Below are positions 4,932-32,071 of a DNA stretch of 33,093 nucleotides, one piece after another. Source of the stretch: Neisseriaceae bacterium. Lineage in GTDB: Bacteria; Pseudomonadota; Gammaproteobacteria; Burkholderiales; Neisseriaceae. A program made the translations under genes and the position numbers. The notes under the pieces are model-generated. The model was not told the DNA's origin. It saw nothing but the letters and a program-made list of their open reading frames with translations, and did not search any database. The stretch's first letter is position 1, and every line of letters begins with the position of its first letter. Location: positions 1-33,093 of the forward strand of contig JAFWRB010000041.1 of NCBI GenBank assembly GCA_017508845.1, in the 5' to 3' direction.

Positions 4932-6584
4932 GTGTTTAAAGTGACAAAGGCAAACAATACAATCAACCCATTTTATCTATTTTTTCAACGCATTAGCCCA
5001 AAAAATGCCGAGTTAGCCACGCCTTTTTTGAACGCTGTTTTAGACGCTTGGGAAAACGGACATTCATTTATTGAATTAAATGAACAACAACAACAAGTTG
5101 CACGCCAGTGTTCGCCTTTAATTGCTTTTGCCTCCGATGATATCGCTCCTTTAATTTTGCAAGGTAACTATTTGTTTTTACATAAAATTTATCATTTAGA
5201 ATACAGCGTAGCACGCCGTTTGCACGATTTATGCACAACGCCCCCTGCTATTTACGCGTACAATGATTTATTGCAAACTTATTTTCAAGAAGATAACCCT
5301 TTGTTTTTAGAGAGTAATTTGCAACAAAAAGCCGCCGTTGAAAAGGCTTTGCGTTGTCGTTTTTCGCTAATTAGCGGCGGGCCAGGTACGGGCAAAACCA
5401 CGACTGTGGCAAAATTGTTAGCGTTATTGTGTCATCAAGAAAAAACGCTGCCCAATATTGCCTTAACGGCTCCCACAGGTAAGGCGGCGGCACATTTGCA
5501 ACAGTCGTTAATCAAAGGTTTGGAAAAACTTTCTTTCAGGCAGCCTGAAACAAAGGCACATTTATCGCAATTACAAGGAAAAACCTTACACCGCTTATTA
5601 AATATTCGTCCGCCTTTGAACCAATCAGAATATAATCAACAAAATCCATTACCTTATGATATTGTTATTGTTGATGAATCATCAATGATAGAATTGAATA
5701 TTGCTTATCAACTATTTAATGCGATTGGCAAAAATACACGCTTAATTTTATTGGGCGATAAAAACCAATTACCCAGTGTGGGAGCAGGGGCAGTTTTAGA
5801 GCAAATTAGCCAAATAGATAAAAACAATGTTTTAGCCGATTGTATTTCTCATTTAACTGTTTCACGCCGTTTTGATGAAAAAAGCGGTATTGGCGTTTTA
5901 GCGTCTGCCATTATTACCAATCGGCCACAACAAGCCTTAAATTGTTTTCAACAATTTTCAAATGAGATAATACAAAAAAACGATACCAAACAATTATATG
6001 AAGAATACTATTATTTACAAAAAGACTATTGGCAGGCGATTGAAGAAAAAAATATAAATAAAGCCTTTGAACATTTTTATAATGCAATGGTTTTATGTGT
6101 ATTACGATATGACGCACAACGCTTTAATCGACAATTTTTAGATTTTTTAATACAAAAAGGACACGGAAAAGGATTTTTTAACGGCAAAGCCATTATGATT
6201 ACAGAAAATAATGTAATATTAGATATTTATAATGGCGATATTGGTATTATATTGAATAATAAAGTATATTTCCCCAATCATCAAAATGGTATTGAGATAC
6301 CATGCATCAATCATTTTGAAGACGCTTTTGCCATTACCGTGCATAAAAGTCAAGGTTCAGAATATAACCATATATTTTTAATTACACCTAAAAAATATAT
6401 TGAAGACGAAGAACAAAACAGCGAAAAAATTTTTGACCGTTCTTTACTTTATACGGCGGTTACACGAAGTAAAAAAACATTTTGTTATATTGGCGATGAT
6501 TTATCGTTACAAAACGCCATTTTACGCCAAAATAAACGCCGAAGTTTATTGGGAAAAATGTTTAATACAATGAGCAATGAGTAA
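4932..6584 (+). CDS. recD: exodeoxyribonuclease V alpha subunit (RecD, SF1 helicase)
   Basis: 550 aa. Walker A SGGPGTGKTTTV, DESSMI, LLGDKNQLPSVGAGAVL, ITVHKSQGSEY and LLYTAVTRSKK motifs. The GTG start (4932 or 4941) is uncertain. Confidence 0.88.
   Translation: MFKVTKANNTINPFYLFFQRISPKNAELATPFLNAVLDAWENGHSFIELNEQQQQVARQCSPLIAFASDDIAPLILQGNYLFLHKIYHLEYSVARRLHDLCTTPPAIYAYNDLLQTYFQEDNPLFLESNLQQKAAVEKALRCRFSLISGGPGTGKTTTVAKLLALLCHQEKTLPNIALTAPTGKAAAHLQQSLIKGLEKLSFRQPETKAHLSQLQGKTLHRLLNIRPPLNQSEYNQQNPLPYDIVIVDESSMIELNIAYQLFNAIGKNTRLILLGDKNQLPSVGAGAVLEQISQIDKNNVLADCISHLTVSRRFDEKSGIGVLASAIITNRPQQALNCFQQFSNEIIQKNDTKQLYEEYYYLQKDYWQAIEEKNINKAFEHFYNAMVLCVLRYDAQRFNRQFLDFLIQKGHGKGFFNGKAIMITENNVILDIYNGDIGIILNNKVYFPNHQNGIEIPCINHFEDAFAITVHKSQGSEYNHIFLITPKKYIEDEEQNSEKIFDRSLLYTAVTRSKKTFCYIGDDLSLQNAILRQNKRRSLLGKMFNTMSNE
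5535..5549. repeat. DUS, perfect 15-mer TTCAGGCAGCCTGAA
   Basis: Exact match. Lies inside recD, read as F-R-Q-P-E. Confidence 0.85.
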
Positions 6585-16438: not shown

Positions 16439-17425
16439 ATGCGAAACATCACTTCTGAACTTTTAAAACCAAGACAAATCAATGTCAATGCCTTGTCCGA
16501 CAGACAAGCCAAAATTTCGTTAGAACCTTTTGAACGCGGTTTTGGTCATACTTTGGGCAACGCATTACGGCGGATTTTGCTTTCTTCAATGACGGGCTTT
16601 GCACCCACAGAAGTTAAAATTGACGGTGTATTGCATGAATACTCTTCGATTGAACACATTGAAGAAGATGTGGTTGATATTCTGTTAAACATCAAAGGTA
16701 TTGTGTTTAAACTGTTCAATCGCGATTCTGTGGTGTTGAATATCAAAAAAGACACCAAAGGTGTGGTTACTGCCGCCGATATTGAATTGCCACATGATGT
16801 GGAAATTTTAAATCCGAATCATGTGATTTGTCATATCGCAGAAGGCGGTAGTTTCTCGGCTGAAATTAAGGTTGAATCAGGTCGTGGCTATTGCCCCGCA
16901 TCGCAATCTCGCAAACTGAAAGATGATACGCGTGAAATCGGCAGCATTCTGTTAGATGCCAGTTTCTCGCCTGTATTGCGTGTGTCGTTTGAAGTGGAAC
17001 CCGCTCGCGTAGAACAACGCACCGATTTAGACCGCTTGGTTTTAGACATCGAAACAGACGGCTCTGTGGATCCCGAAGAAGTGTTGCGTCAATCCGCACA
17101 AATTTTGATTAGTCAAATGGAAGTCTTCGTTGATTTGCAAAACACTAATGTACCTGAAGAAGAAGAACAAGCCCCAGTGGTGGATCCGATTCTTCTGTTG
17201 CCTGTCGATGATTTGGAACTCACCGTGCGTTCGGCTAACTGCTTGAAAGCCGAAGACATTTACTATATCGGTGATTTGATTCAACGCACTGAAACTGAAC
17301 TTCTAAAAACACCGAATTTGGGTCGTAAGTCGCTGACTGAAATCAAAGAAGTCTTGGCAGCCAAAGGTTTGACTTTGGGTTCTAAATTAGAAGGCTGGCC
17401 GCCTGCTAATTTGGTATCAAGATAA
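16439..17425 (+). CDS. rpoA: DNA-directed RNA polymerase alpha subunit
   Basis: 328 aa. LKPRQINV..., [21 protein letters not shown], and C-terminal domain [22 protein letters not shown]. Confidence 0.97.
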
Positions 17426-17474
17426 TCTTTCAGACAGCCTGAAAGCGTGTTTTTATTGATTAAGGATATTTAAT

Positions 17475-17876
17475 ATGCGTCATCGTAAGAGTAATCGTAA
17501 ATTAAACCGTACCAGCAGTCATCGTTTGGCGATGTTGCGTAATATGGCAAATTCTTTGCTGATTCACGAAAGCATTGTTACCACATTGCCCAAAGCAAAA
17601 GAGTTACGCCGCGTGGTTGAACCTTTGATTTCTTTGGGTAAAAAACCGTCTTTGGCAAATCGCCGTTTGGCATTTGACCGCACACGCAATCGTGATGTCG
17701 TGGTAAAATTATTTGGTGAGTTAAATGAACGCTTCGCCGCTCGCAATGGCGGCTATACTCGTGTGCTGAAATATGGCTTTCGTCAAGGCGACAATGCTCC
17801 TATGGCATTGATTGAATTAGTTGATGCAGCCGAAGTTCGTGAGAAAAAAGAAGCGGCAGAAACACAATCCGAATAA
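17475..17876 (+). CDS. rplQ: 50S ribosomal protein L17
   Basis: [46 protein letters not shown]. Confidence 0.96.
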
Positions 17877-17894
17877 TTTTAACGGTTGTTCCTA

Positions 17895-19079
17895 ATGAAT
17901 ATGCAAAGAAAACCCATTTTTGCCTTAAAAACTTGTTTGTTGTTGAGTTTGCTTGCCACTGTTACGGCGTGTGGCTGGTTGCCCCATTCAGGCCCTTCCA
18001 CAGGACAAGTTACTTCATTAGGACAAAGCAATAATCAGGCTGTTCCCGATGTCGCTTTGTTGGACATTGAACACAGCCTGATTCAAGATTTATCGCAACG
18101 CCACAAGGCAAACAGTTTTGCCGCATTAGAAAACACCGCACAAAGCCTTGATGTGGTGAGTCGTGGCGATGTATTAGACATTACCATTTGGGAGGCCGCT
18201 CCTGCCATGCTGTTTGGCGGAGCCTTGTCTGATAGTGGAGCAGGCACTGCCCATGTTACCAAATTGCCGCCACAAACCGTGAGTTCTAACGGCACGATTT
18301 CCATTCCTTTTGTCGGCAACCTGAAAGTAGTGGATAAATCGCTTGAAGACATTCAAAATCTCATTCGCAATCAACTTTCTCGTAAAGCCAATCAACCACA
18401 AGTGATTGTGAGTTTAGCTCAAAACAATTCTACTAATGTTTTGGTTGTGCGGGCAGGCAACAGCGTGCGTATGCCTTTGACGCCCGCCCGCGAACGCATT
18501 TTGGACGCATTAGCCGCTGTGGGCGGTTCCACCGCTAATGTGCAGGACACCACCATTCAAATCACACGCAATAAAAAAATCAGCAAAATTGCGTTAGAAG
18601 ATTTGGTTTCTGACCCCGCACAAAACATTTTATTGCATCGTGGCGATGTGGTAACCGTCATCACCAACCCTTACACATTCACTTCTATGGGTGCAGTAGG
18701 TAGAGCCCAAGAAATTGGCTTTTCCGCACGCGGTTTATCATTAGCTGAAGCCGTAGGCAGAATGGGTGGCTTGCAAGACCGCCGTTCAGACGCTCGTGGC
18801 GTATTTGTGTTTCGCTATACGCCTTTGTCCGAATTGCCCACAGCCGAACAACTTAAATGGACACAAAAAGGCTATCAAGGCAATACCGATGTACCTGTTG
18901 TTTATCGTTTAGATTTAACCAATGCCAATTCAATGTTGTGGATGCAAAAATTTCCTATTCACAATAAAGATGTGGTGTATGTTTCCAATGCACCGTTGGC
19001 AGAAGTGCAAAAATTCTTACAATTTGTTTTCTCACCTGTAACTTCTGGATTTAATAGCATTGATAATATTGTGCATTAA
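17895..19079 (+). CDS. ctrA: capsule polysaccharide export outer-membrane lipoprotein (OPX/Wza family, CtrA/KpsD-like)
   Basis: The track ORF starts at TTG 17886; ATG 17895 or 17901 is more likely. Signal peptide plus lipobox LLATVTA|C. CGWLPHSGPSTGQVTSLGQ resembles the CtrA mature N-terminus as I recall it. PES/SLBB-like GDVLDITIWE and GDVVTV blocks. It is followed by ctrBCD. Confidence 0.82.
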   Translation: MNMQRKPIFALKTCLLLSLLATVTACGWLPHSGPSTGQVTSLGQSNNQAVPDVALLDIEHSLIQDLSQRHKANSFAALENTAQSLDVVSRGDVLDITIWEAAPAMLFGGALSDSGAGTAHVTKLPPQTVSSNGTISIPFVGNLKVVDKSLEDIQNLIRNQLSRKANQPQVIVSLAQNNSTNVLVVRAGNSVRMPLTPARERILDALAAVGGSTANVQDTTIQITRNKKISKIALEDLVSDPAQNILLHRGDVVTVITNPYTFTSMGAVGRAQEIGFSARGLSLAEAVGRMGGLQDRRSDARGVFVFRYTPLSELPTAEQLKWTQKGYQGNTDVPVVYRLDLTNANSMLWMQKFPIHNKDVVYVSNAPLAEVQKFLQFVFSPVTSGFNSIDNIVH

Positions 19080-19125
19080 AAGCGTGTCATCGGTGCTATT
19101 TCGTTATATAATGTAGCTTGTTTTT

Positions 19126-19140
19126 TTCAGGCAGCCTGAA
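19126..19140. repeat. DUS, perfect 15-mer TTCAGGCAGCCTGAA
   Basis: Exact match; left arm of the ctrA-distal hairpin. Confidence 0.85.
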
Positions 19141-19148
19141 ACTTAATT

Positions 19149-19163
19149 TTCAGGCTGCCTGAA
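19149..19163. repeat. DUS, perfect 15-mer TTCAGGCTGCCTGAA
   Basis: Exact match; right arm of the hairpin. Confidence 0.85.
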
Positions 19164-19215
19164 AAATAAAAAAACCACTTTTTAGACTGTTTGAAACGAT
19201 TGATAAAAAATACTT

Positions 19216-19230
19216 TTCAGGCTGCCTGAA
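19216..19230. repeat. DUS, perfect 15-mer TTCAGGCTGCCTGAA
   Basis: Exact match, 32 nt upstream of the ctrB ATG. Confidence 0.85.
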
Positions 19231-19261
19231 AAATATATTCGATTGATATGGAACAAGAAGA

Positions 19262-20404
19262 ATGAGTAGATTATCTAAATTAAAGAAAAACCCCAAAGCA
19301 TTTTTTATTGATGCTTTAATCAAAAATTCTTTACGATTTATCACCGTAACATTGCCCGTTATTTTAGCATTATTGTATTTTGGTTTAATTGCCTCCGACC
19401 AATACATTTCCCAATCTTCTTTTGTGATTCGTTCGGCAAGTCAGCAAAATTCCTTAACAGGATTAGGGGCATTTTTACAAAATGTCGGCTTTTCTCGTTC
19501 GCAGGACGATACTTACAGCGTACGAGAATATATGACTTCGCGTGCTGCACTCAATAACTTGGAACAACAAGGCATTGCCGTGCGTTCTTTTTATGAAAAA
19601 AAGGGCGATTTAATTAGCCGTTTTAATACATTTGGTTTTAATGGCGAACAAGAATTGTTTTATCAATATTATAAAAAGAAAGTAACGGTTAATTTCGACC
19701 CTGTGTCGGGTATTTCTACATTAGATGTGGTGTCTTTTGACCCCAAAGATTCCTATGTTGTGAATGAGGCTTTACTCAAACAAGCCGAAGTTTTAATCAA
19801 TCAACTGAATGATAGGGCTTTAAAAGATACGGTCAAATACGCACAAGCACAAGTTGATGTGGCAGAAGAACGAGTGAAAAAAGCGTCCGAAGATTTAATT
19901 GTGTATCGCACCAAAAACGGCGTATTTGACTTAAAAGTGCAAGCCGAAGGCAAAATCGGTTTAATTTCTAAATTGCAAGACGAACTCATTTTACTGCAAA
20001 CGCAATTAGACCAAGTGCGAGCCATTACCCCTGACAATCCACAGATTTCAGGTTTGATGGCACGAGAACGCAGCCTGAAAAAAGAAATCGAAAAACAAAC
20101 CAATGCTATGTTAAGCGATGAAGACGGCTCAATGACCAAACAAGCGGCAGAGTATCAACGGGTTTATTTAGAAAACGAATTAGCTGAAAAACAATTAGCG
20201 GCGGCGATTACTGCATTAGAAAATGCCAAAGCCGATGCCACACGCCAACAACTTTATTTGGAAGTGATTTCAGCCCCCATTGAACCCGACTTTGCACTGT
20301 TGCCACGCCGTTTGTACAACATTATTGCCACCTTGTTTATCGGCTTAATGATTTATGGCGTTGCCGTGTTGTTACTCGCAGGCGTTAGGGAGCATAAAAA
20401 CTGA
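19262..20404 (+). CDS. ctrB: capsule export inner-membrane protein (PCP-3, CtrB/KpsE-like)
   Basis: 380 aa. N-terminal TM (ITVTLPVILALLYFGLIA), a long coiled-coil-like periplasmic region, and a C-terminal TM (IIATLFIGLMIYGVAVLLLAGV). Position between ctrA and the ABC transporter genes. Confidence 0.8.
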   Translation: MSRLSKLKKNPKAFFIDALIKNSLRFITVTLPVILALLYFGLIASDQYISQSSFVIRSASQQNSLTGLGAFLQNVGFSRSQDDTYSVREYMTSRAALNNLEQQGIAVRSFYEKKGDLISRFNTFGFNGEQELFYQYYKKKVTVNFDPVSGISTLDVVSFDPKDSYVVNEALLKQAEVLINQLNDRALKDTVKYAQAQVDVAEERVKKASEDLIVYRTKNGVFDLKVQAEGKIGLISKLQDELILLQTQLDQVRAITPDNPQISGLMARERSLKKEIEKQTNAMLSDEDGSMTKQAAEYQRVYLENELAEKQLAAAITALENAKADATRQQLYLEVISAPIEPDFALLPRRLYNIIATLFIGLMIYGVAVLLLAGVREHKN

Positions 20405-21273
20405 TGAGCGACAATGCCGAATTAACACCGCCGTCTATGCCTGATGATGGTTACCAAAATGCGTCCAAATTAGCGATGACGCAGACGCGGGAAACTACGC
20501 TTAAAGAATCATTCCAAATCCAAAAACGCGTGATAGGAGCGTTGCTGTTGCGAGAAATGATTACCCGTTATGGACGCAATAACTTGGGCTTTCTGTGGCT
20601 ATTTGTGGAACCGTTGTTGATAACGATGGTGATTACACTAGTATGGAAGTTTATTCGCGGTACACATATTACCGATTTAAATATTGTTGCTTTTGCAATT
20701 ACTGGTTATCCATTAGTGATGATGTGGCGTAAGTCTGCTAACAAAGCAATTGGAGCAGTTACTGCTAACAAGGGGTTGTTATATCATCGGAATGTACGCA
20801 TTATAGACTTGTTATTCTCACGAATTATTTTAGAAATTGCCAGTGTTACCGTAGCACAAATTGTTATCCTTATGGTACTTATTTTTATAGGTTGGATACC
20901 GCTACCATCTGATGTATTTTATATGTTGTTGGCTTGGATTCTGATGTCTTTTTTTGCTATAGGATTAGGATTATTGTTATATGCCTTATCAGAAAAATCG
21001 GAAATATTTGGTAGGGTATGGAAAGCGATGGGATTAGCAACTATGCTTGTTTCAGGAGTGTTTTATTTTGTTTCTGCCCTTCCAGTTTATGTGCAAGAAA
21101 TTTTATTATGGTTTCCAATGGTTCATGGGACAGAAATGTTCCGTCATGGTTATTTTGGTGCGACCGTAGTTACTATGGAGAATCCATGGTATTTAATCTT
21201 ATGGGATATTATCTTATTGTTGGTTGGTTTATTAGCAGTCAATGGTGTTATGCGACGAGGGGTATCTAAATAA
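20404..21273 (+). CDS. ctrC: capsule export ABC transporter permease (ABC-2 type, CtrC/KpsM-like)
   Basis: 289 aa, about 6 TM segments. [26 protein letters not shown] is typical of ABC-2 polysaccharide exporters. ATGA-type overlap with the ctrB stop. An internal Met (MTQTRE) is an alternative start. Confidence 0.82.
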
Positions 21274-21917
21274 TGTTGGCATTAGAACATGTTTATAAGT
21301 CCTATCCCACACGCAAGGGCATGCGTACGGTTTTGCACGACATTAACTTTACCCTAAAAAAAGGCGAAAAATTAGGCATTCTCGGACGCAATGGTGCAGG
21401 TAAGTCCACACTTATTCGTTTAATCGGTGGTGTTGAGTCTCCCAATTCTGGTCGCATCATTCGCAATATGAGTGTCTCTTGGCCATTGGCATTTTCAGGG
21501 GCATTTCAAGGCAGTTTGACAGGAATGGACAATTTGCGTTTTATCTGTCGTATTTACAATGCTAATATAGCGAAAGTAAAAAAATTTACCGAAGACTTTG
21601 CTGAATTAGGTTTATATTTAAATGAACCTATCAAAACCTATTCATCAGGTATGAAAGCAAGGCTTGCTTTCGCCCTATCACTTGCGATAGAATTCGACTG
21701 TTACCTTATTGACGAAGTGATTGCGGTGGGTGATGCTCGTTTGAATGCCAAATGTAAATATGAGCTATTTGAAAAGCGTAAGGATCGTTCTTTAATTTTG
21801 GTGTCGCACAATGAGAAAACAATTCAACAGTATTGCGATAAAGGAGCTGTGTTGAAAGATGGTTGCTTGTCTCAATTAGATAGTGTTGAGTGGTCGTTTG
21901 TGGAATATGACAAATAA
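21273..21917 (+). CDS. ctrD: capsule export ABC transporter ATP-binding protein (CtrD/KpsT-like)
   Basis: 214 aa. Walker [11 protein letters not shown], signature [12 protein letters not shown], Walker B CYLIDE, H-loop SHN. TAATG overlap with ctrC. Confidence 0.88.
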
Positions 21918-21935
21918 GTTGTTGAGGAAGTAACC

Positions 21936-23045
21936 ATGTCGAAAATGTCTAAACTTTTTGTTAATCCAATTCAATTTTGGAGAGATTTTTTTGGGAAAAA
22001 AGTTATTGGGTACTATGGAAAAACGATTTTTGCTTTTCATATCAATGACTGGAAAAGAAAGTTTGTGGAATCTATTTTCCCTGAATATGATTTTGTTTAT
22101 ATCCCATTTAAGGCAACTGATAAATGGTTGCATGATAATTGCATTGCTAAAATCGTTGATAATGTTGCACAGTCTAGAATTTTAGTTTGGGGTATGTGGT
22201 TGCCTAAAATTATTCAACAAAATGATTTTATTATGAGTAATATTCCCATTACCTGGGTTGAAGATGGTTTTATTCGCTCCATTGGATTGGGTTCAGGACA
22301 TGTGTTGCCTGCAAGTTTAAATTTTGATTCAAGAACTTGTTATTTTGATGCGAGAAAAGAGTCGGATTTGGAGCATATTCTCAATACTTATGATTTTGAT
22401 GCAGATGTTGCATTGATGCAAAGAGCGGTATCATTAAAACAAAGATTATTATCTACAGGTATCAGTAAGTATAACCATTCTAAAAAGGTAGATATTGCGA
22501 ATGTTTATGGACCGAAACGGCAAACGAGAATATTGGTTGTGGGTCAAGTTGAAGATGACGCGTCTATTGCTTATGGTTGTTTGAGTGCCTATAACAATAA
22601 TGATATTGTTCGTATTGCTGCTTATGAAAATCCAGATGCACAAATTATTTACAAACCGCATCCAGATGTTTTACACCAGAAACGAGAAAAATTATCAGAT
22701 CCGCGTGACGTTGCAGATATATGTCAAGTGTTAAACATTGATATTCCGTTATCTCAATCTTTTGAAACTATCGATCATGTTTATACTATTTCATCTCAAG
22801 CAGGATTTGAAGCCTTGTTAAGAGGGATATCTGTAACGACATTGGGATGTCCATTTTATTCTGGTTGGGGTTGTACGGATGATAGACAAAAAAATGATAG
22901 AAGAATCAGAAAGCTGACTGTTGAACAAATCTTGGCAGCGGCATACATTTTGTACCCTAAATACTATCATCCGTTGTATAAAAATGAAACGGATGTTGAG
23001 AGTGTTTTGCAATATTTTGAAACTGTTTTAAATGGAGATAAGTGA
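21936..23045 (+). CDS. single-module KpsC/KpsS-family (Capsule_synth) protein, putative beta-Kdo glycosyltransferase
   Basis: 369 aa; GAGGAAG RBS. Blocks WVEDGFIRSIGLG, ISKYN, ILVVGQVEDDASI, IIYKPHPDV, VYTISSQAGFEALLRG and GCPFYSGWGCTDDR match my recollection of conserved KpsC/LipA module motifs (EDGFLRS, KxHPDV, PFYAGWGLT). The size corresponds to one module, not the two-module KpsC. Confidence 0.6.
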   Translation: MSKMSKLFVNPIQFWRDFFGKKVIGYYGKTIFAFHINDWKRKFVESIFPEYDFVYIPFKATDKWLHDNCIAKIVDNVAQSRILVWGMWLPKIIQQNDFIMSNIPITWVEDGFIRSIGLGSGHVLPASLNFDSRTCYFDARKESDLEHILNTYDFDADVALMQRAVSLKQRLLSTGISKYNHSKKVDIANVYGPKRQTRILVVGQVEDDASIAYGCLSAYNNNDIVRIAAYENPDAQIIYKPHPDVLHQKREKLSDPRDVADICQVLNIDIPLSQSFETIDHVYTISSQAGFEALLRGISVTTLGCPFYSGWGCTDDRQKNDRRIRKLTVEQILAAAYILYPKYYHPLYKNETDVESVLQYFETVLNGDK

Positions 23046-24949
23046 GCATGAGCAGTATGTTTGAGTCTTATGTCAGAGAAAGAATTAGTCAATTTTTATC
23101 TAATTTTGATGCTAAAACATCATACGATGATGTCCGTAAATTGGGAGATCAGTATCAAAAAAGTGGTAACGCTTTTGACCTGTTGTCTATCGGCAGTTTT
23201 ATTAAACAAAAATATTCGAATAGAGAAATTGGTTATCGGTTTATTTGGCTTGGGTATCGCAAATTTCATATGAGAAATCAGATGGAAAGTGTTGAACAAG
23301 AATTTATGGATAAAGTTTTCCCAAGATATTGTGAGAAACAGATATTTCCGATTTTTTTTCGAGAGATTTTCGTGGAAGCGTTTTTAACGGGAAGATTCAC
23401 CAAGTGCTCTCGTCTGCTTGGTTTGTGTGATGAACAACTTTTGGACAAGTTTATGGCAGATAATAAGATGTTTTGTCATCGAGTGCAACAGTTTCGAGAG
23501 ATTTTTGGAGAGTATACAGCACATTCCGAAGGTGAAGCAAATGATGATATAAGTGAATTTATTAAACAGTACAACTTAGGGGAACGAAGATTAGAGTTTT
23601 TTGAACGCATAAGAAATTCAGATGTGATTGTTTCCCCATATACTAATAGGAAATTATTTTTAATTATGGAAATGTTAAAACATTGTCCTGAATTTACAAC
23701 AACAAAGTTATTGATTACTGTTTATAGGAGAAATTGCCGTCTAGCTTATAATTTATTGGATTATTTAATAACACATAACAAGGTGGAATACAATCTCATT
23801 TATTTTTTATTAAAGTTTTCCACGCTTGATTCTAACTTATTATCATATTTTGATAAAGTATCGAGTTCATTGGGTTTAGATCGTGATTGTAAAATTGCCA
23901 TTGGTGCTTTGGAAATGAGAAAAAAAGCCATAGTACTGAATCAAGATTGGTTACATTTTGATGAGAATAGAACTTTCTTCTTTAAAAAGACGAATGAACA
24001 GCCAATACATGTGGCAATTGAGGTTTCGGGACAAATTCGAGGTTCTATAGAAGACAATATTTCTAATATCCTTAATATTAGGGATAATATTACTGTTGGA
24101 GAAGTAGATGTTTTCCTAGATTCTTGGAGTATTGGCAACTTTTTCCCATTCAAACTTTCGGATTATAGAATTTGGGGTAAGGAGTTAGGTGCAATATACA
24201 AAGATGTATGTAAATTATCAGCAGAACAGTTTGTGTCTTTGTTTCCCGCAACTACTCAATTTCTTGAGAAATTAAATAAAGAGAAAAGTTTTGCCTTATC
24301 AGCAACTAATGAAATTTTCAAGGATTTTACTGATGTGAGATTTGAGAAAGAGGAGGACATATCTTTTCCAACAGTGTTGTCACATAAAAATAGTTTTAAT
24401 CAAGCAAAGATGTGGTATAAGATATTCCAGGCTCACCGATTAGCAACTGCTCATGGTTATAGGCATGGTTTTGAGTATGATGTTTCGATTAGAATCAGAC
24501 CAGACTTGAATATTTCTTCTCGAGATGTTTCTGAAATGGTATCTGTGGTGAGTAAATATAAAAATATTGTATTCACTCATTACAACAATAATGATGGTTT
24601 TGGCGATCAATTTTTGATTTGTTCCAAAATGGCAATGGATAGAATTGCCTCGTTATGGTGTCAATTAACTCGTAAGCGTTCTTTTCGACATATTCCAGAA
24701 CTGCATAGGACATATCAAGCTGAAAGTTTTATTACTCAAAATTGTGCCTTATTGGGATTGGAAGTGGTTGTATTTAGAGCGGATTCATATCAGTTAGGTA
24801 GTTCTCAATCGGAATTGTTGGTGAATACGATTACTGATGATATTACGCCGTTTCTTCAGTTAGATCTTGCCAATCAACCTAATCAGGAAGGCAGGTTGTT
24901 TGTTGAAAAATATATAGAAAACAAGAAAAACGGTATTATTTTTAAGTGA
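23042..24949 (+). CDS. hypothetical protein, candidate capsule polymerase or transferase (no assignable motif)
   Basis: 635 aa. GTG 23042 (GTGA overlap with the upstream stop) or ATG 23048 (GGAGA about 9 nt upstream). Very A+T-rich, co-oriented and tightly packed within the capsule cassette. The N-terminal ~300 aa look helical. The C-terminal ~300 aa have alternating beta/alpha-like blocks (VAIEVSGQIRG, DVFLDSW, YDVSIRIRPDL, GFGDQFLICS). Confidence 0.5.
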   Translation: MSMSSMFESYVRERISQFLSNFDAKTSYDDVRKLGDQYQKSGNAFDLLSIGSFIKQKYSNREIGYRFIWLGYRKFHMRNQMESVEQEFMDKVFPRYCEKQIFPIFFREIFVEAFLTGRFTKCSRLLGLCDEQLLDKFMADNKMFCHRVQQFREIFGEYTAHSEGEANDDISEFIKQYNLGERRLEFFERIRNSDVIVSPYTNRKLFLIMEMLKHCPEFTTTKLLITVYRRNCRLAYNLLDYLITHNKVEYNLIYFLLKFSTLDSNLLSYFDKVSSSLGLDRDCKIAIGALEMRKKAIVLNQDWLHFDENRTFFFKKTNEQPIHVAIEVSGQIRGSIEDNISNILNIRDNITVGEVDVFLDSWSIGNFFPFKLSDYRIWGKELGAIYKDVCKLSAEQFVSLFPATTQFLEKLNKEKSFALSATNEIFKDFTDVRFEKEEDISFPTVLSHKNSFNQAKMWYKIFQAHRLATAHGYRHGFEYDVSIRIRPDLNISSRDVSEMVSVVSKYKNIVFTHYNNNDGFGDQFLICSKMAMDRIASLWCQLTRKRSFRHIPELHRTYQAESFITQNCALLGLEVVVFRADSYQLGSSQSELLVNTITDDITPFLQLDLANQPNQEGRLFVEKYIENKKNGIIFK

Positions 24950-24956
24950 GGTTTCT

Positions 24957-26099
24957 ATGTTCCTAATCCCCATGTGTGGCTTATCTTCCCGTTTTTTTAA
25001 GGCGGGTTATGATAAACCGAAATATATGTTAGACCTTAACGGAGAAACAGTTTTTTCTTGGTCGGTGAAATCTTTTGAGCGTTATTTTTTAACGGATAAG
25101 TTTGTTTTTATTTACCGTGATATTTATGGCACGAAATCGTTTTTAGAGCAAGAGATTAAAAAACTTGGTATAAGAGATTTTGCTTTCATTTGTTTAGACC
25201 ATGAAACCGAGGGGCAGGCTGAAACGGTTTATTTGGGTTTAGAGCAAATTGTAGAAGATGATGCGTTATATATTTTTAATATCGACTCCAAAATTGTGGA
25301 TTTCAGACAGCCTGAATGGGTGAAAGATTGTGATGCTTATTTGGAGGTTTTTCAAGGAGAAGGTGACCACTGGTCTTTCGCTTTGCCTGATACAGACGGT
25401 AGAACCGTATTAAAAACCACCGAAAAAGAACGCATTTCTGATTTATGTTCGGACGGTTTATATTACTTCAAAAGTAAATCTTTGTTTATAGATTTATTTC
25501 AAGAAGTTAAAGAAAAAGGCGAGAAAACTAAATCGGAATATTATATTGCACCTTTGTATAATTATTTAATTCAACAAGGCAAAAAAGTTTATTATGATTT
25601 AATTGATAAGAATAACATTCTTTTTTGTGGTACGCCTGATGAATATTTAGCATTGTTGTCTTTCAAGCAGCCTGAAAAAGTTAATCATGGTTCAAGTACC
25701 ACTCAAAAGGTGCGAGTGAAGAAAATTGTGATTGATTTAGACAATACCATTTCAATGACTAAAAATCGAGATTATGCAAATGCCGAGCCGATTATGGAAG
25801 TGGTCGAAAAAATCCGTGAATACAAACAAATGGGTTTTGATATTGTGATTTATTCTTCTCGCAATATGAAAACTTATCAAGGCAATATCGGTAAAATTAC
25901 GGCGAATACGCTGCCGATTATTATTGACTGGCTAAAGCGGCACAATATTCCTTTTGACGAAATTTATATCGGCAAGCCTTGGTGCGGAGAAGATGGTTTT
26001 TATGTTGATGACCGTGCCATTCGTCCAAGTGAATTTACACAACTGTCGTATGAAGAAATACAAAAAATCACCAGTGAAGGGCAGGGGGAAACACAATGA
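24957..26099 (+). CDS. bifunctional sugar-phosphate nucleotidyltransferase-like / HAD-superfamily phosphatase (capsule biosynthesis phosphatase type)
   Basis: 380 aa. The N-terminus LIPMCGLSSRFFKAGYDKPKYML...TEGQAETV...EKERISDLCSDGLYYF...YYIAPLYNYLI...GTPDEY has the NTP-transferase (GT-A-like) pattern. The C-terminus carries HAD motifs: I VIDLDNT, II YSSRN, IV YVDDRA. Confidence 0.65.
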   Translation: MFLIPMCGLSSRFFKAGYDKPKYMLDLNGETVFSWSVKSFERYFLTDKFVFIYRDIYGTKSFLEQEIKKLGIRDFAFICLDHETEGQAETVYLGLEQIVEDDALYIFNIDSKIVDFRQPEWVKDCDAYLEVFQGEGDHWSFALPDTDGRTVLKTTEKERISDLCSDGLYYFKSKSLFIDLFQEVKEKGEKTKSEYYIAPLYNYLIQQGKKVYYDLIDKNNILFCGTPDEYLALLSFKQPEKVNHGSSTTQKVRVKKIVIDLDNTISMTKNRDYANAEPIMEVVEKIREYKQMGFDIVIYSSRNMKTYQGNIGKITANTLPIIIDWLKRHNIPFDEIYIGKPWCGEDGFYVDDRAIRPSEFTQLSYEEIQKITSEGQGETQ

Positions 26100-27643
26100 T
26101 TCTCATCAATTCCGCGGCTTTCGGTTCTTCTTCTTTACGCAATGAATTAGGCAATGTGCCGCCTGTGTTTTTGCCTTTGGGCAATAAAAAATTGCTGGTT
26201 TATCAGGTTGAATATTTGCGCCGTTTTTTTGATGAGCAGATTGTGGTTTCTTTGCCACAATCTTATCAACTCTCCATAATGGAGAAAAAACTGTTGGATA
26301 GATTGCAAGTATCCATTTGTCCCGTGCCTGATGGTTTAAAGTTAGGTGCGGCTATTTTGTATGTTTTGAATACAATAGAAGAGTTTTCTGTTTCAGAGCC
26401 TCTGCGAATGTTGCACGGTGATACTTTACTGACAACTTATCAGCCCAATCCAAATGCTTTGGGTTTGGGTAAGACAGTTTATGATTATCACTGGGAAAAT
26501 GAAGCCAATACACAAGGTAAAGTCTGGTGTGGTTATTTTTCTTTTGAAATGCCGCGTTTATTGATTGCAAATTTAGCACGCACACAAGGCGATTTTGTGC
26601 AAAGCGTTCGGCAATATCATCAAAAAAATCCTTTGGACTTAATTGATTGTGAAGACTGGTTTGACTTTGGTCATATCAATACCTATTTTCGTTCGCGGGC
26701 TATGGTGACCACGCAACGTTCTTTTAATGAATTGAACATTGCCGATGGTGTGGTAGAAAAGCAATCTGTGCAAAACCGCAAAATCGAAGCTGAAGGAAAC
26801 TGGTTTTTCAAGCTGCCTGAACATTTAAAAATTTACATTCCGCAGTTAATCAGTTGGGAGCATACGCCAGAAAAAAGCTGTTATTGTTTAGAATACTTAA
26901 ATTGTATGCCCGTAAACGAGCTCTTTGTGCATGGACGTAAAATTAAATCGTTTTGGTTGCATTTGTGTACTTTGTTGGCAGATTTTATGGGCAAAACAAG
27001 GCAAGTGGTATTAAGTGATGACGAAAACAAGTGCATTGTTGCGGACGCACAAAAACTTTATCACGATAAAACCATTAGTCGTTTAACACAGTATGCCGAA
27101 ACAACAGGGCTATTGTTAGATGCACCTGTCAAATATGCAGGCAAAGATTTAGGTTCGATTATGCATATTGCTCATGATTGTATCCAACGCACACAACAGT
27201 TACCCATTATTTCTTGCTATTTGCACGGTGATTTGTGTTTTTCGAATATTTTGTATGATTCGCGTAGCGACAATATTAAAGTAATTGACCCACGCGGCAT
27301 TAATGCTGATAATGAATTAACCTTATTAGGTGACCAAAAGTATGATTTGGCCAAATTGTGTCATTCTATGGTTGGTTTATACGATTTTATTATTGCCGAC
27401 AATTTTGAATTGCTTGAAGATGACGAAGTAGGTGTAGTGTTAAGTTTTGATTGTGATGATTCGGTTTTGGCATTAGCAGATATTTTTTGGCAAACACCAT
27501 TTATTCCCAAACTAAGCAATCGTGCTATTTTGCCACTTACCATTTTGTTGTTTTTATCCATGTTGCCATTGCACAGCGATAAACCTTTACGACAAAAAGC
27601 AATGCTCGCCAATGCATTAAGGCTTTATGCGATGATGAAATAA
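26096..27643 (+). CDS. nucleotidyltransferase-like N-domain fused to APH/choline-kinase-family phosphotransferase domain
   Basis: 515 aa; ATGA overlap with the upstream gene. The N-terminus (VPPVFLPLGNKKLLVYQVEYL...MLHGDTLL) looks like a degenerate NTP-transferase fold. The C-terminus has the catalytic loop LHGDLCFSNILYD followed by IKVIDPRG (Brenner-type HxDxxxxN ... D). Confidence 0.6.
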   Translation: MILINSAAFGSSSLRNELGNVPPVFLPLGNKKLLVYQVEYLRRFFDEQIVVSLPQSYQLSIMEKKLLDRLQVSICPVPDGLKLGAAILYVLNTIEEFSVSEPLRMLHGDTLLTTYQPNPNALGLGKTVYDYHWENEANTQGKVWCGYFSFEMPRLLIANLARTQGDFVQSVRQYHQKNPLDLIDCEDWFDFGHINTYFRSRAMVTTQRSFNELNIADGVVEKQSVQNRKIEAEGNWFFKLPEHLKIYIPQLISWEHTPEKSCYCLEYLNCMPVNELFVHGRKIKSFWLHLCTLLADFMGKTRQVVLSDDENKCIVADAQKLYHDKTISRLTQYAETTGLLLDAPVKYAGKDLGSIMHIAHDCIQRTQQLPIISCYLHGDLCFSNILYDSRSDNIKVIDPRGINADNELTLLGDQKYDLAKLCHSMVGLYDFIIADNFELLEDDEVGVVLSFDCDDSVLALADIFWQTPFIPKLSNRAILPLTILLFLSMLPLHSDKPLRQKAMLANALRLYAMMK

Positions 27644-27660
27644 TGGCTTTGTCTTGAGTA

Positions 27661-27680
27661 CAGCCAAAATGTTTTGGCTG
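27661..27680 (+). terminator. hairpin CAGCCAAAA-TG-TTTTGGCTG downstream of the 515-aa gene
   Basis: Perfect 9-bp inverted repeat 18 nt after the stop. The T-run (27690-27694) is displaced by 9 nt, so this is a weak terminator candidate. Confidence 0.3.
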
Positions 27681-27813
27681 TCTGAAGGATTTTTGTAAGT
27701 TAAGAAAGGTATTGCAATGAGTTTGATTTGTGAAATAAGGTCTGATATTGTCGGGGGGAGGGATTACTTCTTCTCATCTAAACAAAGCAAGTTCTGTTGT
27801 GCGTACAACATTA

Positions 27814-27837
27814 TTTTGCTCTAATAAAGGAGCAAAA
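27814..27837 (+). promoter_or_regulatory. 8-bp stem hairpin occluding the acetyltransferase Shine-Dalgarno
   Basis: TTTTGCTC (27814-27821), TAATAAAG, GAGCAAAA (27830-27837). The SD AAGGAG (27827-27832) is partly in the 3' arm. ATG at 27840. Confidence 0.3.
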
Positions 27838-27839
27838 TA

Positions 27840-28607
27840 ATGGCGAAATATAAATTTGTGATGACAGAGGAAATTTGTCTTTTATTACAACAGGAAGGAT
27901 TGTTGTTTTGTCGAGGATTGGAACAGGATTCTGGTAAAACCCACTTAATGGGTAAGGATGTACTCTTTTCTGAGCTTTCATCTTTTTATAACACTGCCTA
28001 CAGAAAAGGAAATGTTGTATATCCTATGGGAGCATACTCTTATTCTTCTGTGCAATTTCCTTTGGATATTAGAGTAGGCAATTATTGTTCTATTGCAGGA
28101 AATATTCATTTTCGTGGCTGGGAACATCCGATTACTGCTTTTACTACTAACCATATTGCTTATGATGCGATAACACTCAATCTAATGCACACTCAATTAG
28201 TTAAGAATTCGACTAATTTGAAACCTAAAAGAGCCAAATTTCATATGGGTGATGATGTGTGGATTGCAAATGATGTTTTACTACCTCGGCATATTACAAT
28301 CGGAACAGGAGCGATTATTGCTGCTCGTGCGAATGTAACCAAAGATGTTCCGCCGTATGCCATTGTTGGCGGTAATCCTGCAAAAATTATCAAATATCGT
28401 TTTGAAGAAAAAATTATTGAAAAACTATTAGCAACAGGTTGGACGGAATACGATATTGCCCCAATGGAAATTCGTGGTGATATTCCTGTGGAGAACTTTA
28501 TTGAAGAGTTTTATAACTACCGTGATAAGGGATTGATTAAACCGATTGTGTTGAAAAACTTAAAAGAAGTTTTGGATAAACACGGTATTGTTTATGAGCG
28601 GGTATAG
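27840..28607 (+). CDS. hexapeptide-repeat acyltransferase, XAT (CatB/Vat-like) class; possible capsule O-acetyltransferase
   Basis: 255 aa; AAGGAG RBS. IRVGNYCSIAGNIHF...EHPITAFTTNHIAY, then GDDVWIANDVLLPRHITIGTGAIIAARANVTKDVPPYAIVGGNPAKIIKYRF, typical of left-handed beta-helix xenobiotic-type acetyltransferases. Confidence 0.7.
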   Translation: MAKYKFVMTEEICLLLQQEGLLFCRGLEQDSGKTHLMGKDVLFSELSSFYNTAYRKGNVVYPMGAYSYSSVQFPLDIRVGNYCSIAGNIHFRGWEHPITAFTTNHIAYDAITLNLMHTQLVKNSTNLKPKRAKFHMGDDVWIANDVLLPRHITIGTGAIIAARANVTKDVPPYAIVGGNPAKIIKYRFEEKIIEKLLATGWTEYDIAPMEIRGDIPVENFIEEFYNYRDKGLIKPIVLKNLKEVLDKHGIVYERV

Positions 28608-28774
28608 AATGCAAAAAGGGTTTCAGGTTGCCTGAATATGCACATAACTTTGTTAAAATTCCTTGTAATAAATTGTTTTATAAAGATTTTGATATGCTAA
28701 AAACTTTTCTTTGATTTTGTCAAGGTTTTATTCCATTGAGTGCATTTTTTCAAAGGAAAATTTAAGTAGCATAG

Positions 28775-29662
<888 letters not shown>

Positions 29663-29665
29663 GTT

Positions 29666-29680
29666 TTCAGGCAGCCTGAA
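29666..29680. repeat. DUS, perfect 15-mer TTCAGGCAGCCTGAA
   Basis: Exact match, 4 nt after the kdsA stop. Confidence 0.85.
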
Positions 29681-31404: not shown

Positions 31405-31770
31405 ATGAAATGCGAAGTTGAATATACGGACGAGTTTAACGACTGGTGGAATGCTTTATCCGAAGACGAGCAAGAAGATGTTTATGCTTCGGTGAGTATG
31501 TTGGAAGTTTGGGGAACAAATTTGAAGTTTCCACACAGCACTTCGATTACTTCGTCCAAACACGGCAATATGCGTGAATTGCGTGTTCAAAGTAGTGGTA
31601 GACCTCTGCGAGTGTTGTATGCGTTCGACCCACGCCGTTGTGCGATTTTGTTAATCGGCGGTGATAAAACAGGTGATAAGCGTTGGTACGACAAGTTTGT
31701 GCCGATTGCCGACCGTTTATACGATGAACATTTGTTGATTTTGGAGCAGGAAGATGGCAAAAAAATTTGA
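31405..31770 (+). CDS. type II toxin, RelE/ParE superfamily (HigB/Gp49-like)
   Basis: 121 aa. Pattern FNDWWNAL...ML...G..L.FPHS...MRELRV...RPLRVLYAFDPRRCAILLIGGDKTGDKRWYDKFVPIADRLYDEHL is typical of Gp49/HigB-like toxins. The toxin-first order and 17-nt overlap with an XRE gene support this. Confidence 0.7.
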   Translation: MKCEVEYTDEFNDWWNALSEDEQEDVYASVSMLEVWGTNLKFPHSTSITSSKHGNMRELRVQSSGRPLRVLYAFDPRRCAILLIGGDKTGDKRWYDKFVPIADRLYDEHLLILEQEDGKKI

Positions 31771-32071
31771 TGAATTGCGAGCCAAAATGTCGCCTGAATC
31801 GCGTGCCAGAGCGGAAATGAAATTCCAAAAATTGTTGGCAGAAATGCCTTTGCACGAGTTGCGTCAGGCACAGGGTTTGTCGCAAACTGAATTGGCGGAA
31901 AGATTGCATATCAATCAGGCTGCGGTATCGAAAATGGAAAGACGCACGGATATGTATATCAGTTCGCTACGCAAAACCATTCAAGCAATGGGCGGTGATT
32001 TGGAAATTATCGCTAAATTTCCACACGGTTCAGTCAAAATCAGTCATTTTGCGAACGGTGCAACGGAATAA
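31754..32071 (+). CDS. XRE-family helix-turn-helix antitoxin (HigA-like)
   Basis: 105 aa. HTH LRQAQGLSQTELAERLHINQAAVSKMERR. Confidence 0.7.
   Translation: MAKKFDELRAKMSPESRARAEMKFQKLLAEMPLHELRQAQGLSQTELAERLHINQAAVSKMERRTDMYISSLRKTIQAMGGDLEIIAKFPHGSVKISHFANGATE

Follow-up and report, generated by a model that had tools for sequence, protein, structure and literature searches.

The window considered here is DNA of a Neisseriaceae bacterium (contig JAFWRB010000041.1 of assembly GCA_017508845.1, positions 1-33,093; 33,093 nucleotides (nt), forward strand). A ribosomal-protein, rpoA and rplQ operon runs up to 17876 and a capsule cassette starts directly after it, being inserted right behind rplQ at the end of the rpoA operon (9-nt gap, 17876-17886) and ahead of truA, which is followed by trpF. 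Beyond its export genes the cassette holds a KpsC-like protein of 369 amino acids (aa), the gene under study here (the target), a fused nucleotidyltransferase (NT) and HAD protein of 380 aa, a KfoE-like protein of 515 aa, an O-acetyltransferase gene and kdsA (Table 1). The NT, HAD and KfoE-like activities are called the trio in what follows. At about even confidence, and judging from sequence comparison and a structure model, the target would be an acceptor-specific transferase for the sugar that the trio activates, most likely beta-fructofuranose, working with the adjacent KpsC-like enzyme.

No other gene of the cassette is as large as the target, whose open reading frame (ORF) is uninterrupted for 635 aa if a GTG start is used, as an earlier sequence-only reading of the window had it. 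The A+T richness claimed in that reading also holds: the kilobases in which the gene lies have a GC content of 0.316 and 0.343, the lowest of the cassette, compared with 0.43-0.46 for the housekeeping genes on either side. A GTGA overlap with the upstream stop had been taken to suggest translational coupling; the spacing is indeed tight, but the overlap exists only with the GTG start. The ATG at 23048 is the more likely start, because GGAG (23034-23037) lies 10 nt upstream of it and because gene calls in sister genomes begin at the equivalent ATG. The protein then has 633 aa in each case, and the gene begins 2 nt past the upstream stop without overlap.

Standard family searches say little of the target. 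Pfam gives no match, and NCBIfam and a PDB sequence search return noise (GlyBetbindOsmF, E 0.066, and Fur6 8har, E 2.7, respectively). PF05159 (GT107 KpsC/KpsS Capsule_synth) is matched by the upstream 369-aa protein and not by the target. Searches of Pfam, NCBIfam and PDB with the target sequence or the family profile found no TagF, Stealth or LicD relationship, and no conserved DxD is seen, so what the sequence-only reading said of TagF, Stealth and DxD stands. That it is an orphan does not. A word-indexed protein search does return only a 99%-identical twin, from a 'Neisseriaceae bacterium' metagenome-assembled genome (MAG) of roe-deer abomasum, and in the same kind of search a 43-sequence profile yields two proteins and the KfoD protein of Escherichia coli K4 only unnamed hypotheticals. 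Exhaustive HMMER searching finds 139 representative relatives at E<=1e-3, 36 of them at E<=1e-10, and so the orphan impression is an artefact of the word index. Nearly all of the 139 align to target residues ~312-635 only, and most are 600-700 aa long with the matching domain at the C-terminus, which is the architecture of the target.

This C-terminal domain is here called KfoD-like. Five blocks mark it in the target, SGQIRG (327-332), DVFLDSW (354-360), NQAKMWYKI (451-459), IRIRPD (481-486) and GFGDQF (517-522), for which the family consensus reads (S/T)GQxRG, DxFxxTW, NQAKMxYKI (more loosely NxxKMxY), YDVxIRxRPD (or (I/V)RxRPD) and GxGDQF. Residues G328, R331, W360, N451, R482, R484, D486 and D520 are invariant or nearly so. 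The three stretches picked out by eye in the earlier reading, DVFLDSW, IRIRPDL and GFGDQF, coincide with conserved blocks of the family and include the (near-)invariant D354/W360, R482/R484/D486 and D520. All five blocks are found in the target, in its Pseudomonas and Aeromonas relatives and in KfoD of E. coli K4, where they read TGQSRG, DVFISTW, NAEKMYY, IKIRPD and GIGDQL. The profile of the family C-domain finds K4 KfoD at E 2.2e-28 by hmmsearch and at probability 99.2 (E 1.7e-19) by hhalign, whereas direct BLASTP between target and KfoD gives only E 0.004 at ~25% identity. KfoD differs from the target in a ~200-aa N-terminus of its own and lacks the last ~90 residues. The family is thus present in many genomes and uncharacterised rather than unseen: of the claim that the target represents a new family, the functional half stands, and the other half falls since the domain is already in many genomes, E. 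coli K4 included. The nearest Pfam entry is DUF7796 (PF25072, gathering threshold 27 bits), which touches 15 of 43 relatives (best E 1.7e-8); relatives tested singly score 17-21 bits, under the threshold, and the target is unmatched even at E<=1. Nothing relevant on DUF7796 was found in the literature searched.

Several members of the family are unusual in themselves. Arrays of proteins of more than 1000 aa, each ending in a KfoD-like domain, occur in some genomes (L045, L046 and L033), one 1933-aa ORF carries two such domains, and Methylovulum miyakonense (L024, L030, L049 and L053) has at least four separate copies; on sequence these arrays and copies seem to mark a large and so far unexplored expansion that the family has undergone away from capsule loci. 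A 643-aa protein from a low-GC, Campylobacter-like source (P0051) has the domain at 152-480 followed by a stretch, 526-638, that matches the N-terminus of an O-methyl phosphoramidate (MeOPN) transferase model; the protein could have arisen by fusion, or by read-through between adjacent capsule genes. A link of the target to the Campylobacter MeOPN transferases (NF058596 CJJ1420_fam) was considered and rejected because this sole match (profile positions 9-121) lies outside the region homologous to the target. P0003, the KfoD-like member of another capsule cassette, carried by a related Neisseriaceae genome, is 28% identical to the target over the full length and 36% in the C-domain, and yet the last 28 residues of the two are nearly identical; the 3' ends of the genes share a 96-bp island of 91.7% nucleotide identity (24863-24958 against 5601-5696 of locus L064), which would point to a junction left by recombination or else to a C-terminal peptide conserved for an interaction.

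AlphaFold2, given a 127-sequence alignment, models the target at a mean predicted local distance difference test (pLDDT) of 74.5 (38 in a single-sequence run), and reproduces the division into a helical N-terminal half and a strand/helix C-terminal half that had been claimed from the sequence. Residues 1-300 form 17 helices (pLDDT 50-85) and are followed by a disordered linker and by an alpha/beta domain at 320-633 with pLDDT mostly >90. The N-terminal ~310 residues have no homologue, even among family members, their sequence being unique to the lineage of the target. No TPR Pfam match is obtained for this half, of which the model shows paired-helix repeats; ~9 of 43 relatives do have Pfam TPR matches, and the N-terminal part of the family profile matches TPR/PPR structures in PDB. 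A Foldseek search of PDB with the full-length model gives as its best 50 matches only GT-A glycosyltransferases or RmlA-type nucleotidyltransferases (E 1e-3 to 1e-2, 6-14% identity), among them LARGE1, XXYLT1, glycogenin, BoGT6a (template modelling (TM) score 0.53), hyaluronan synthase, B3GNT2 and RmlA. The target-normalised TM scores (target here in the Foldseek sense) are 0.17-0.53, or 0.3-0.5 for single-domain enzymes, and are diluted by the N-domain in the query. Because all 50 belong to these two kinds of enzyme, the modelled C-domain would be a nucleotide-sugar-binding fold without a close solved relative. By Foldseek the overall alpha/beta architecture would be one held in common with GT-A enzymes of GT8 (glycogenin, XXYLT1, LARGE1), GT6 (BoGT6a) and GT2 (hyaluronan synthase); the similarity is at E ~1e-3 and 6-14% identity, and the target family has RxRPD and GDQF in place of a DxD. 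None of the matches is strong.

A relationship to the phosphoribosyl pyrophosphate (PRPP)-dependent ribofuranosyltransferases CriT/gPRT, which also put helical bundles and an alpha/beta core beside a HAD enzyme, was considered and dropped. Neither 8A0C nor 7SHG is matched by the target in PDB sequence or profile searches, both are absent from the best 50 Foldseek matches, and the HAD of the window is BcbF-type. KrkA (GT140) and the CriT-CrpP pair of Bcs3 do resemble the route proposed below in making a furanose from a central sugar phosphate with a HAD phosphatase (PMC12887879, PMC10299916); they differ in that the target has no similarity to CriT/gPRT, the window has no KrkA-like gene and its HAD belongs to the 1XPJ/TIGR01689 subfamily.

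The target and the 369-aa protein are the only transferases in region 2 of the window cassette. The latter matches KpsC in PDB (6MGD, 3e-43), keeps the GQVEDD (QxxxD) and KPHPDV (HP) motifs and is 39% identical to residues 366-647 of full KpsC. What had been called a KpsC-like gene is thus KpsC-type and not a full KpsC, being one module nearest to the C-terminal one, and its product is probably a retaining beta-Kdo transferase (GT107-type) that makes the Kdo part of the polymer as the partner of the target. Neither a KrkA-like gene nor full-length kpsC or kpsS is present in the window, and because of the lack of the last two the Kdo-linker genes must lie elsewhere.

Table 1. Coordinates of the target, its domains and the other features of the capsule cassette, in window positions
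Feature	Position	Strand	Evidence
Wza/KpsD-like exporter	17886-19079	+	Pfam Poly_export/SLBB
AGGCAGCCTGAA, three copies in the wza-kpsE spacer	19129-19140, 19149-19160, 19216-19227	.	sequence
KpsE-like	19262-20404	+	export gene
KpsM	20404-21273	+	ABC2_membrane in sister locus
KpsT	21273-21917	+	ABC_tran in sister locus
Single-module KpsC-like (Capsule_synth) protein, 369 aa	21936-23045	+	PF05159 7e-31
Putative recombination tract	22165-25165 (against 9110-12120 of L001)	.	sliding identity 99.5-100% to sister genome L001
Target gene	23048-24949 (633 aa, ATG) or 23042-24949 (635 aa, GTG)	+	ORF
Predicted N-terminal all-helical repeat domain, TPR-like, residues ~1-315	23048-23992	+	AlphaFold2
C-terminal KfoD-like alpha/beta domain, residues ~316-633	23993-24946	+	139 relatives, conserved columns, AlphaFold2
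BcbE/KfoH-like NT and BcbF-like HAD fusion, 380 aa	24957-26099	+	PDB 4EVW, 1XPJ; TIGR01689
KfoE-like NT and kinase protein, 515 aa	26096-27643	+	Fructosamin_kin/APH weak Pfam matches
Hexapeptide-repeat O-acetyltransferase	27840-28607	+	Vat/CatB/WcaF-type NCBIfam and Hexapep matches
KdsA (Kdo-8-phosphate synthase), last cassette gene	28823-29662	+	DAHP_synth_1 call in sister loci
AGGCAGCCTGAA, fourth cassette-edge copy, just past kdsA	29669-29680	.	sequence

Downstream of the target the 380-aa protein is made of an NT part (residues 1-240) and a HAD part (254-374), with PDB matches to 4EVW (7e-69, deposited as an NDP-sugar pyrophosphorylase) and 1XPJ (8e-48). The HAD part scores 208 bits against TIGR01689, the EcbF-BcbF capsule biosynthesis phosphatase model (cut-off 162), and the NT part, which is BcbE-like, carries the G-x-S-S-R...K-P-K nucleotidyltransferase signature and has rmlA/IspD/MobA-type matches. 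The separate K4, K52 and K112 genes of E. coli are 46-56% (NT) and 55-63% (HAD) identical to these parts. NT and HAD are fused in the window and are separate genes in E. coli K4, K52 and K112, in Pseudomonas, in Aeromonas and in others; the copy of the fusion in a sister genome is 372 aa long, with an indel-rich stretch at ~25680-25710. The 515-aa protein joins an NT-like N-domain, which matches eIF2B-gamma and G1P-thymidylyltransferase, to a C-domain like aminoglycoside phosphotransferase (APH) and fructosamine kinase (weak Pfam matches), and is 44-46% identical to the 525-aa proteins of K52 and K112 and 31-38% to two fragments of K4 kfoE. Its N-domain is homologous to the BcbE-like NT (hhalign probability 91), so these two are related to each other; the KfoD-like domain is, by hhalign, unrelated to either.

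The case for fructose comes from loci in which the trio has been studied. K4 is fructosylated chondroitin (PMC8858990), and deletion of kfoE leaves the chondroitin unfructosylated (PMC8858990, PMC7925653, PMC3673904). For the capsule of Pasteurella multocida type B, mutation of bcbE or of bcbG leads to loss of the fructose branch, and a part in this step is predicted for BcbF as well (PMC13552107). These knock-outs thus tie the trio genetically to fructose addition on capsules. The 380-aa protein of the window corresponds to a fusion of the P. multocida BcbE and BcbF (TIGR01689/PIRSF028162), which are on the donor side and are not counterparts of the target. The available part of a catalogue of E. 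coli capsules has TIGR01689 and PIRSF028162 (the BcbE family) at least four times each in its InterProScan table, and among the passages with these entries K4, K11, K52 and K112 are named (PMC13171606). K52 is termed 'the fructose-containing K52' in the title of a reference. Among complete E. coli genomes, 130 of 5426 match the trio stretch, many of them over only part of the HAD gene. K11 reportedly contains fructose too, according to work by Rodriguez, Jann and Jann of 1990.

The fructose-bearing E. coli loci inspected contain both the trio and the KfoD-like domain. The K4 locus runs galE/kfoA, kfoB, kfoC (686 aa), an insertion sequence (IS), a 477-aa gene at the kfoD position, a 126-aa HAD gene, kfoE, a 241-aa NT gene, kfoF and kfoG, and is like that of the window an ABC-transporter capsule locus; its HAD, NT and KfoE-like proteins are 55%, 50% and 31-38% identical to those of the window, NT and HAD being separate genes, and its acceptor is the glucuronic acid of chondroitin as against presumably Kdo in the window. 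Published descriptions give kfoD as a gene of 'unknown function' (PMC3673904). In the K4-type E. coli NZ_AP022069 (L063, 9427-14348) kfoE, a 522-aa protein with NT-like and APH-like kinase parts, is split by IS1. The K52 locus was identified by proteins of 829, 1248, 248 and 123 aa, which match K52_10, K52_12, K52_9 and K52_8 of the catalogue in size and annotation (PMC13171606). The C-terminal half of K52_10 (829 aa) is found by the family profile at E 1e-70 and lies directly upstream of the trio, as the target does; its N-terminal partner is a hexapeptide acyltransferase and not helical repeats, and its motifs deviate, the first being degenerate (SGMMK) and NDGIF replacing GDQF. The K112-type locus of E. 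coli PCN033 (L062, 5775-13296) has a KrkA-like Kdo/ribose polymerase, the trio and a 456-aa protein without a family match and with marginal likeness to KfoD-like and WavE proteins, and would predict an undescribed decorated Kdo-ribose capsule. Between the wca genes and gnd of other E. coli (L058/L060) the trio belongs to an O-antigen locus of the ABC-transporter type, together with a 707-aa protein that has a KfoD-like domain (profile E 6e-20) and a WavE-family protein (PF07507; hhalign of WavE to the KfoD-like family only ~10%), and because both trio and domain occur there the module seems not to be restricted to capsules.

Outside E. coli the closer relatives (Aeromonas, Pseudomonas, an Enterobacterales MAG and others) lie, in every case examined, in region 2 of a Kps-type capsule locus with kpsM/T/E/D, full-length kpsC and kpsS and often kdsA. 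Their usual neighbour is a protein of ~1150 aa whose middle part matches the Bcs3/7SHG ribofuranosyltransferase-phosphatase (a 1176-aa Pseudomonas example matches the ribofuranosyltransferase structures 8A0C/7SHG at 5e-17), and these neighbours look to be KrkA-like Kdo/ribose polymerases (PMC12887879). Because a separate polymerase of this kind is present there, the KfoD-like protein of most relatives looks like a side-chain transferase. Directly downstream of the closer relatives there are almost always genes of ~237, ~120 and ~520 aa, 35-63% identical to the 380-aa and 515-aa proteins of the window. A genome scan with an alignment of 11 closer sequences retrieved 46 independent genome loci, and in ~17 of them the trio lies no further than 10 kb from the domain. 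The ~17 come from alpha-, beta- and gamma-proteobacteria and from a Paenibacillus, and many have no Kps genes at all. Since trio and domain keep company across such diverse lineages, the four activities (KfoD-like, NT, HAD and KfoE-like) would form a mobile functional module. More widely, relatives of the target sit in polysaccharide loci.

Conservation differs markedly within the module. Between window and E. coli the trio is 44-63% identical (K52/K112) or 31-55% (K4), as against only 22-30% for the domain of the target and its counterparts. The KfoD-like domain moreover varies in its N-terminal fusion partner, which may be TPR-like, an acyltransferase or a short unrelated stretch, and some genomes have it in multiple copies. 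Such fast divergence and varied fusions argue for the pattern of an acceptor-specific transferase and not that of a donor-making enzyme.

A route can be drawn up by analogy with the heptose pathway and PRPP-dependent ribofuranosylation. The KfoE-like kinase would phosphorylate fructose-6-phosphate at the anomeric O2 to give fructose 2,6-bisphosphate, the HAD enzyme would remove the phosphate at O6, leaving fructose-2-phosphate, and the BcbE-like nucleotidyltransferase would turn this into a nucleoside diphosphate (NDP)-fructofuranose; alternatively, on the model of PRPP-dependent ribofuranosylation, the 6-phosphate may stay in place until the transfer is done. The target, as a predicted cytoplasmic enzyme, would then transfer the fructosyl unit onto a Kdo-containing chain made by the 369-aa beta-Kdo transferase, its helical N-domain perhaps holding the growing polymer or the partner enzyme. 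The product, either an alternating Kdo-fructose backbone or a poly-Kdo chain with fructose branches, would be O-acetylated, probably by the hexapeptide-repeat protein, and exported by the KpsMT/KpsE/KpsD-like system. We infer, rather than observe, that the KfoD-like and not the BcbE-like domain is the transferase, as also the donor, the order of steps, the chemistry and the product. KfoE is on this evidence probably a kinase/nucleotidyltransferase and its published name of fructosyltransferase a misassignment, and the KfoD-like proteins probably make up a new family of glycosyltransferases with a link to capsule fructosylation. The full set of novelties, namely an undescribed NDP-fructofuranose pathway, a DxD-less new glycosyltransferase family, a two-protein Kdo-fructose polymerase and a misnamed KfoE, is rather unlikely to hold in its entirety.

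The assignment of the target as a transferase draws on the GT-A-like C-domain, the location in capsule and O-antigen loci and the pairing with sugar-activation genes; that of fructose as its sugar on the ties of the trio to fructose in K4 and P. multocida type B and on its presence in the fructose-containing K52 locus. Earlier the target had been put forward, by elimination, as the enzyme adding the non-Kdo component, and this is the best-supported reading as to a transferase, a polymerase not being shown. A number of points tell against it all the same. We know of no fructose-containing Kdo/ribose capsule. Members of the KfoD-like family are all functionally uncharacterised, and no sequence-profile link joins the family to any CAZy-type family. 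The Foldseek matches are weak, with nucleotidyltransferases scoring nearly as high as glycosyltransferases, and where a DxD would stand there is the YDVxIRxRPD block with the invariant R482, R484 and D486. Many loci of the family lack the trio within 10 kb, a sister cassette from the Neisseriaceae, with a KpsT 86% identical to that of the window, has a different kinase/NT/HAD set alongside its KfoD-like P0003, and because of both the family would not be restricted to one donor or sugar. The 456-aa protein of K112 resembles the KfoD-like domain at an hhalign probability of only ~10%. The CDD label of the BcbE family is 'GT2_BcE_like', the fructose of P. multocida type B is attributed to BcbE, BcbF and BcbG only (PMC13552107), and the K4 literature names KfoE the fructosyltransferase (PMC8858990).

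The breadth of the family would fit the idea that the target is a glycosyltransferase for another ketose or furanose, the tie to fructose holding only for K4, K52, K11 and Pasteurella: many loci are without the canonical trio, the sister cassette has its different set, and the Aeromonas, Pseudomonas and K112 relatives stand beside KrkA-like polymerases whose known products have no fructose (PMC12887879). The trio of the window is however canonical, being 44-63% identical over the full length to that of K52/K112 (31-55% for K4), a level that usually preserves substrate, and its HAD domain is above the equivalog-like TIGR01689 cut-off, so this is thought unlikely. Distinctly unlikely, in turn, is an exchange of roles in which the KfoD-like domain makes the donor, as a nucleotidyltransferase or similar, and the BcbE-like domain or the N-domain of KfoE-like proteins is the real glycosyltransferase. 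RmlA-type enzymes among the Foldseek matches, an SGQxRG loop behind strand 1 that resembles an NTP-binding loop, the GT2-like name of BcbE-like proteins in CDD, the fructosyltransferase name of KfoE (PMC8858990) and the reported sufficiency of BcbE, BcbF and BcbG in P. multocida (PMC13552107) would all fit with it. Yet it is the BcbE-like domain that has the classical G-x-S-S-R...K signature, the rmlA/IspD/MobA-type matches and a pyrophosphorylase relative in PDB, and a donor enzyme should be about as conserved as the trio, not far more divergent, nor fused to variable acceptor-side domains and multiplied in some genomes.

Two further possibilities start from the N-domain. Its TPR-like character recalls the TagF-like capsule polymerases Cps3D and Cps7D (PMC11666461), K52 and K11 are phosphodiester polymers and two invariant arginines could bind phosphate, so that the target could be a sugar- or polyol-phosphate transferase for a teichoic-acid-like phosphodiester capsule, or a transition transferase between a poly-Kdo anchor and the polymer; but similarity to TagF, Stealth, LicD or MeOPN transferases is lacking, K4 has KfoD yet no phosphodiester and K52 has a TagF-like enzyme of its own, which makes such a role very unlikely. 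That the large helical repeat domain serves a non-catalytic scaffold or chain-length regulator of the capsule assembly complex, as complex-level effects in bcbE, bcbG and bcbH mutants, which lose most capsule, might suggest (PMC13552107), is the most improbable of all, since the invariant polar residues R482, R484, D486, D520 and N451 lie on loops of the nucleotide-binding fold and are kept from phylum to phylum, as expected for catalysis.

The history of the cassette adds to the pairing of the target with its neighbour. Outside the tract given in Table 1 the cassette has about 60-96% nucleotide identity to the sister genome, and the background in which the tract is set is at about 85-92%. Within these 3 kb lie the greater part of the Kdo-transferase gene, the target in full and ~200 nt from the start of the gene that follows. 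Over the target 6 of 1902 nt differ, compared with 2.2% in rpoA and 8-20% in neighbouring genes, and the changes are one synonymous and five non-synonymous (99.2% protein identity). Purifying selection was rejected as the cause, synonymous sites being near-identical too, and for this reason the tract reads as a recent recombination that moved the Kdo-transferase and target genes together. The 12-mer AGGCAGCCTGAA has 13 exact copies in the window (2338-32113), where 0.02 would be expected; they frequently form inverted pairs within spacers between genes, and we take the 12-mer to resemble a Neisseriaceae DNA uptake sequence of the Kingella-type dialect. It is found at both edges of the cassette and is absent from the interior (19228-29668, 10.4 kb), which with its low GC looks imported. 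Contigs of public runs (X1 and X14) show ~4x depth and many loose ends at 19045-19234/29658-29665, and their joints link ~19150-19234 straight to ~29660, bypassing the 10.5-kb cassette; these are probably assembly through the repeated 12-mer, and could also be strains without the cassette or with another in its place.

Of the remaining features, kdsA is matched by its probe in five of the 52 other (non-Neisseriaceae) loci scanned, all Kps capsule loci (those named are L006, L009, L012 and L015, of which L009 and L015 are one contig). In its longest form the truA ORF (349 aa, start 29652) would share positions 29652-29662 with the end of kdsA, and as truA is called at 263 aa in the sister genome the overlap may be an ORF-start artefact. 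A gut-metagenome RNA-seq run yields an assembled contig of 10.5 kb spanning 17400-27645, compatible with a single transcription unit, though DNA carry-over may also account for it. A Gp49/HigB-like toxin gene (121 aa, PF05973) and a 105-aa ORF that overlaps it downstream, at 31405-32071, probably make up a toxin-antitoxin pair beside the capsule region.

How fructofuranose is added to cytoplasmically assembled capsules, as concerns E. coli K4/K11/K52, Haemophilus influenzae type e and P. multocida B/E, has no biochemical answer and no donor in the literature searched, where nothing relevant appears on capsule synthesis from NDP-, UDP-, CDP- or GDP-fructose or from fructose-2-phosphate. KfoE, the one protein to have been named a 'fructosyltransferase', resembles a kinase/nucleotidyltransferase. 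If the reading of the target given here is true, the KfoD-like domain would add a glycosyltransferase family and the trio would be a heptose-pathway-like activation route. K4 is the industrial source of chondroitin, from which the fructose needs to be removed, fructose branches alter antigenicity, and in silico capsule typing depends on correct functions for these genes. For the organism of the window a Kdo/fructose capsule is predicted in a ruminant-gut member of the Neisseriaceae, made with a transferase pair that would have been exchanged between lineages.

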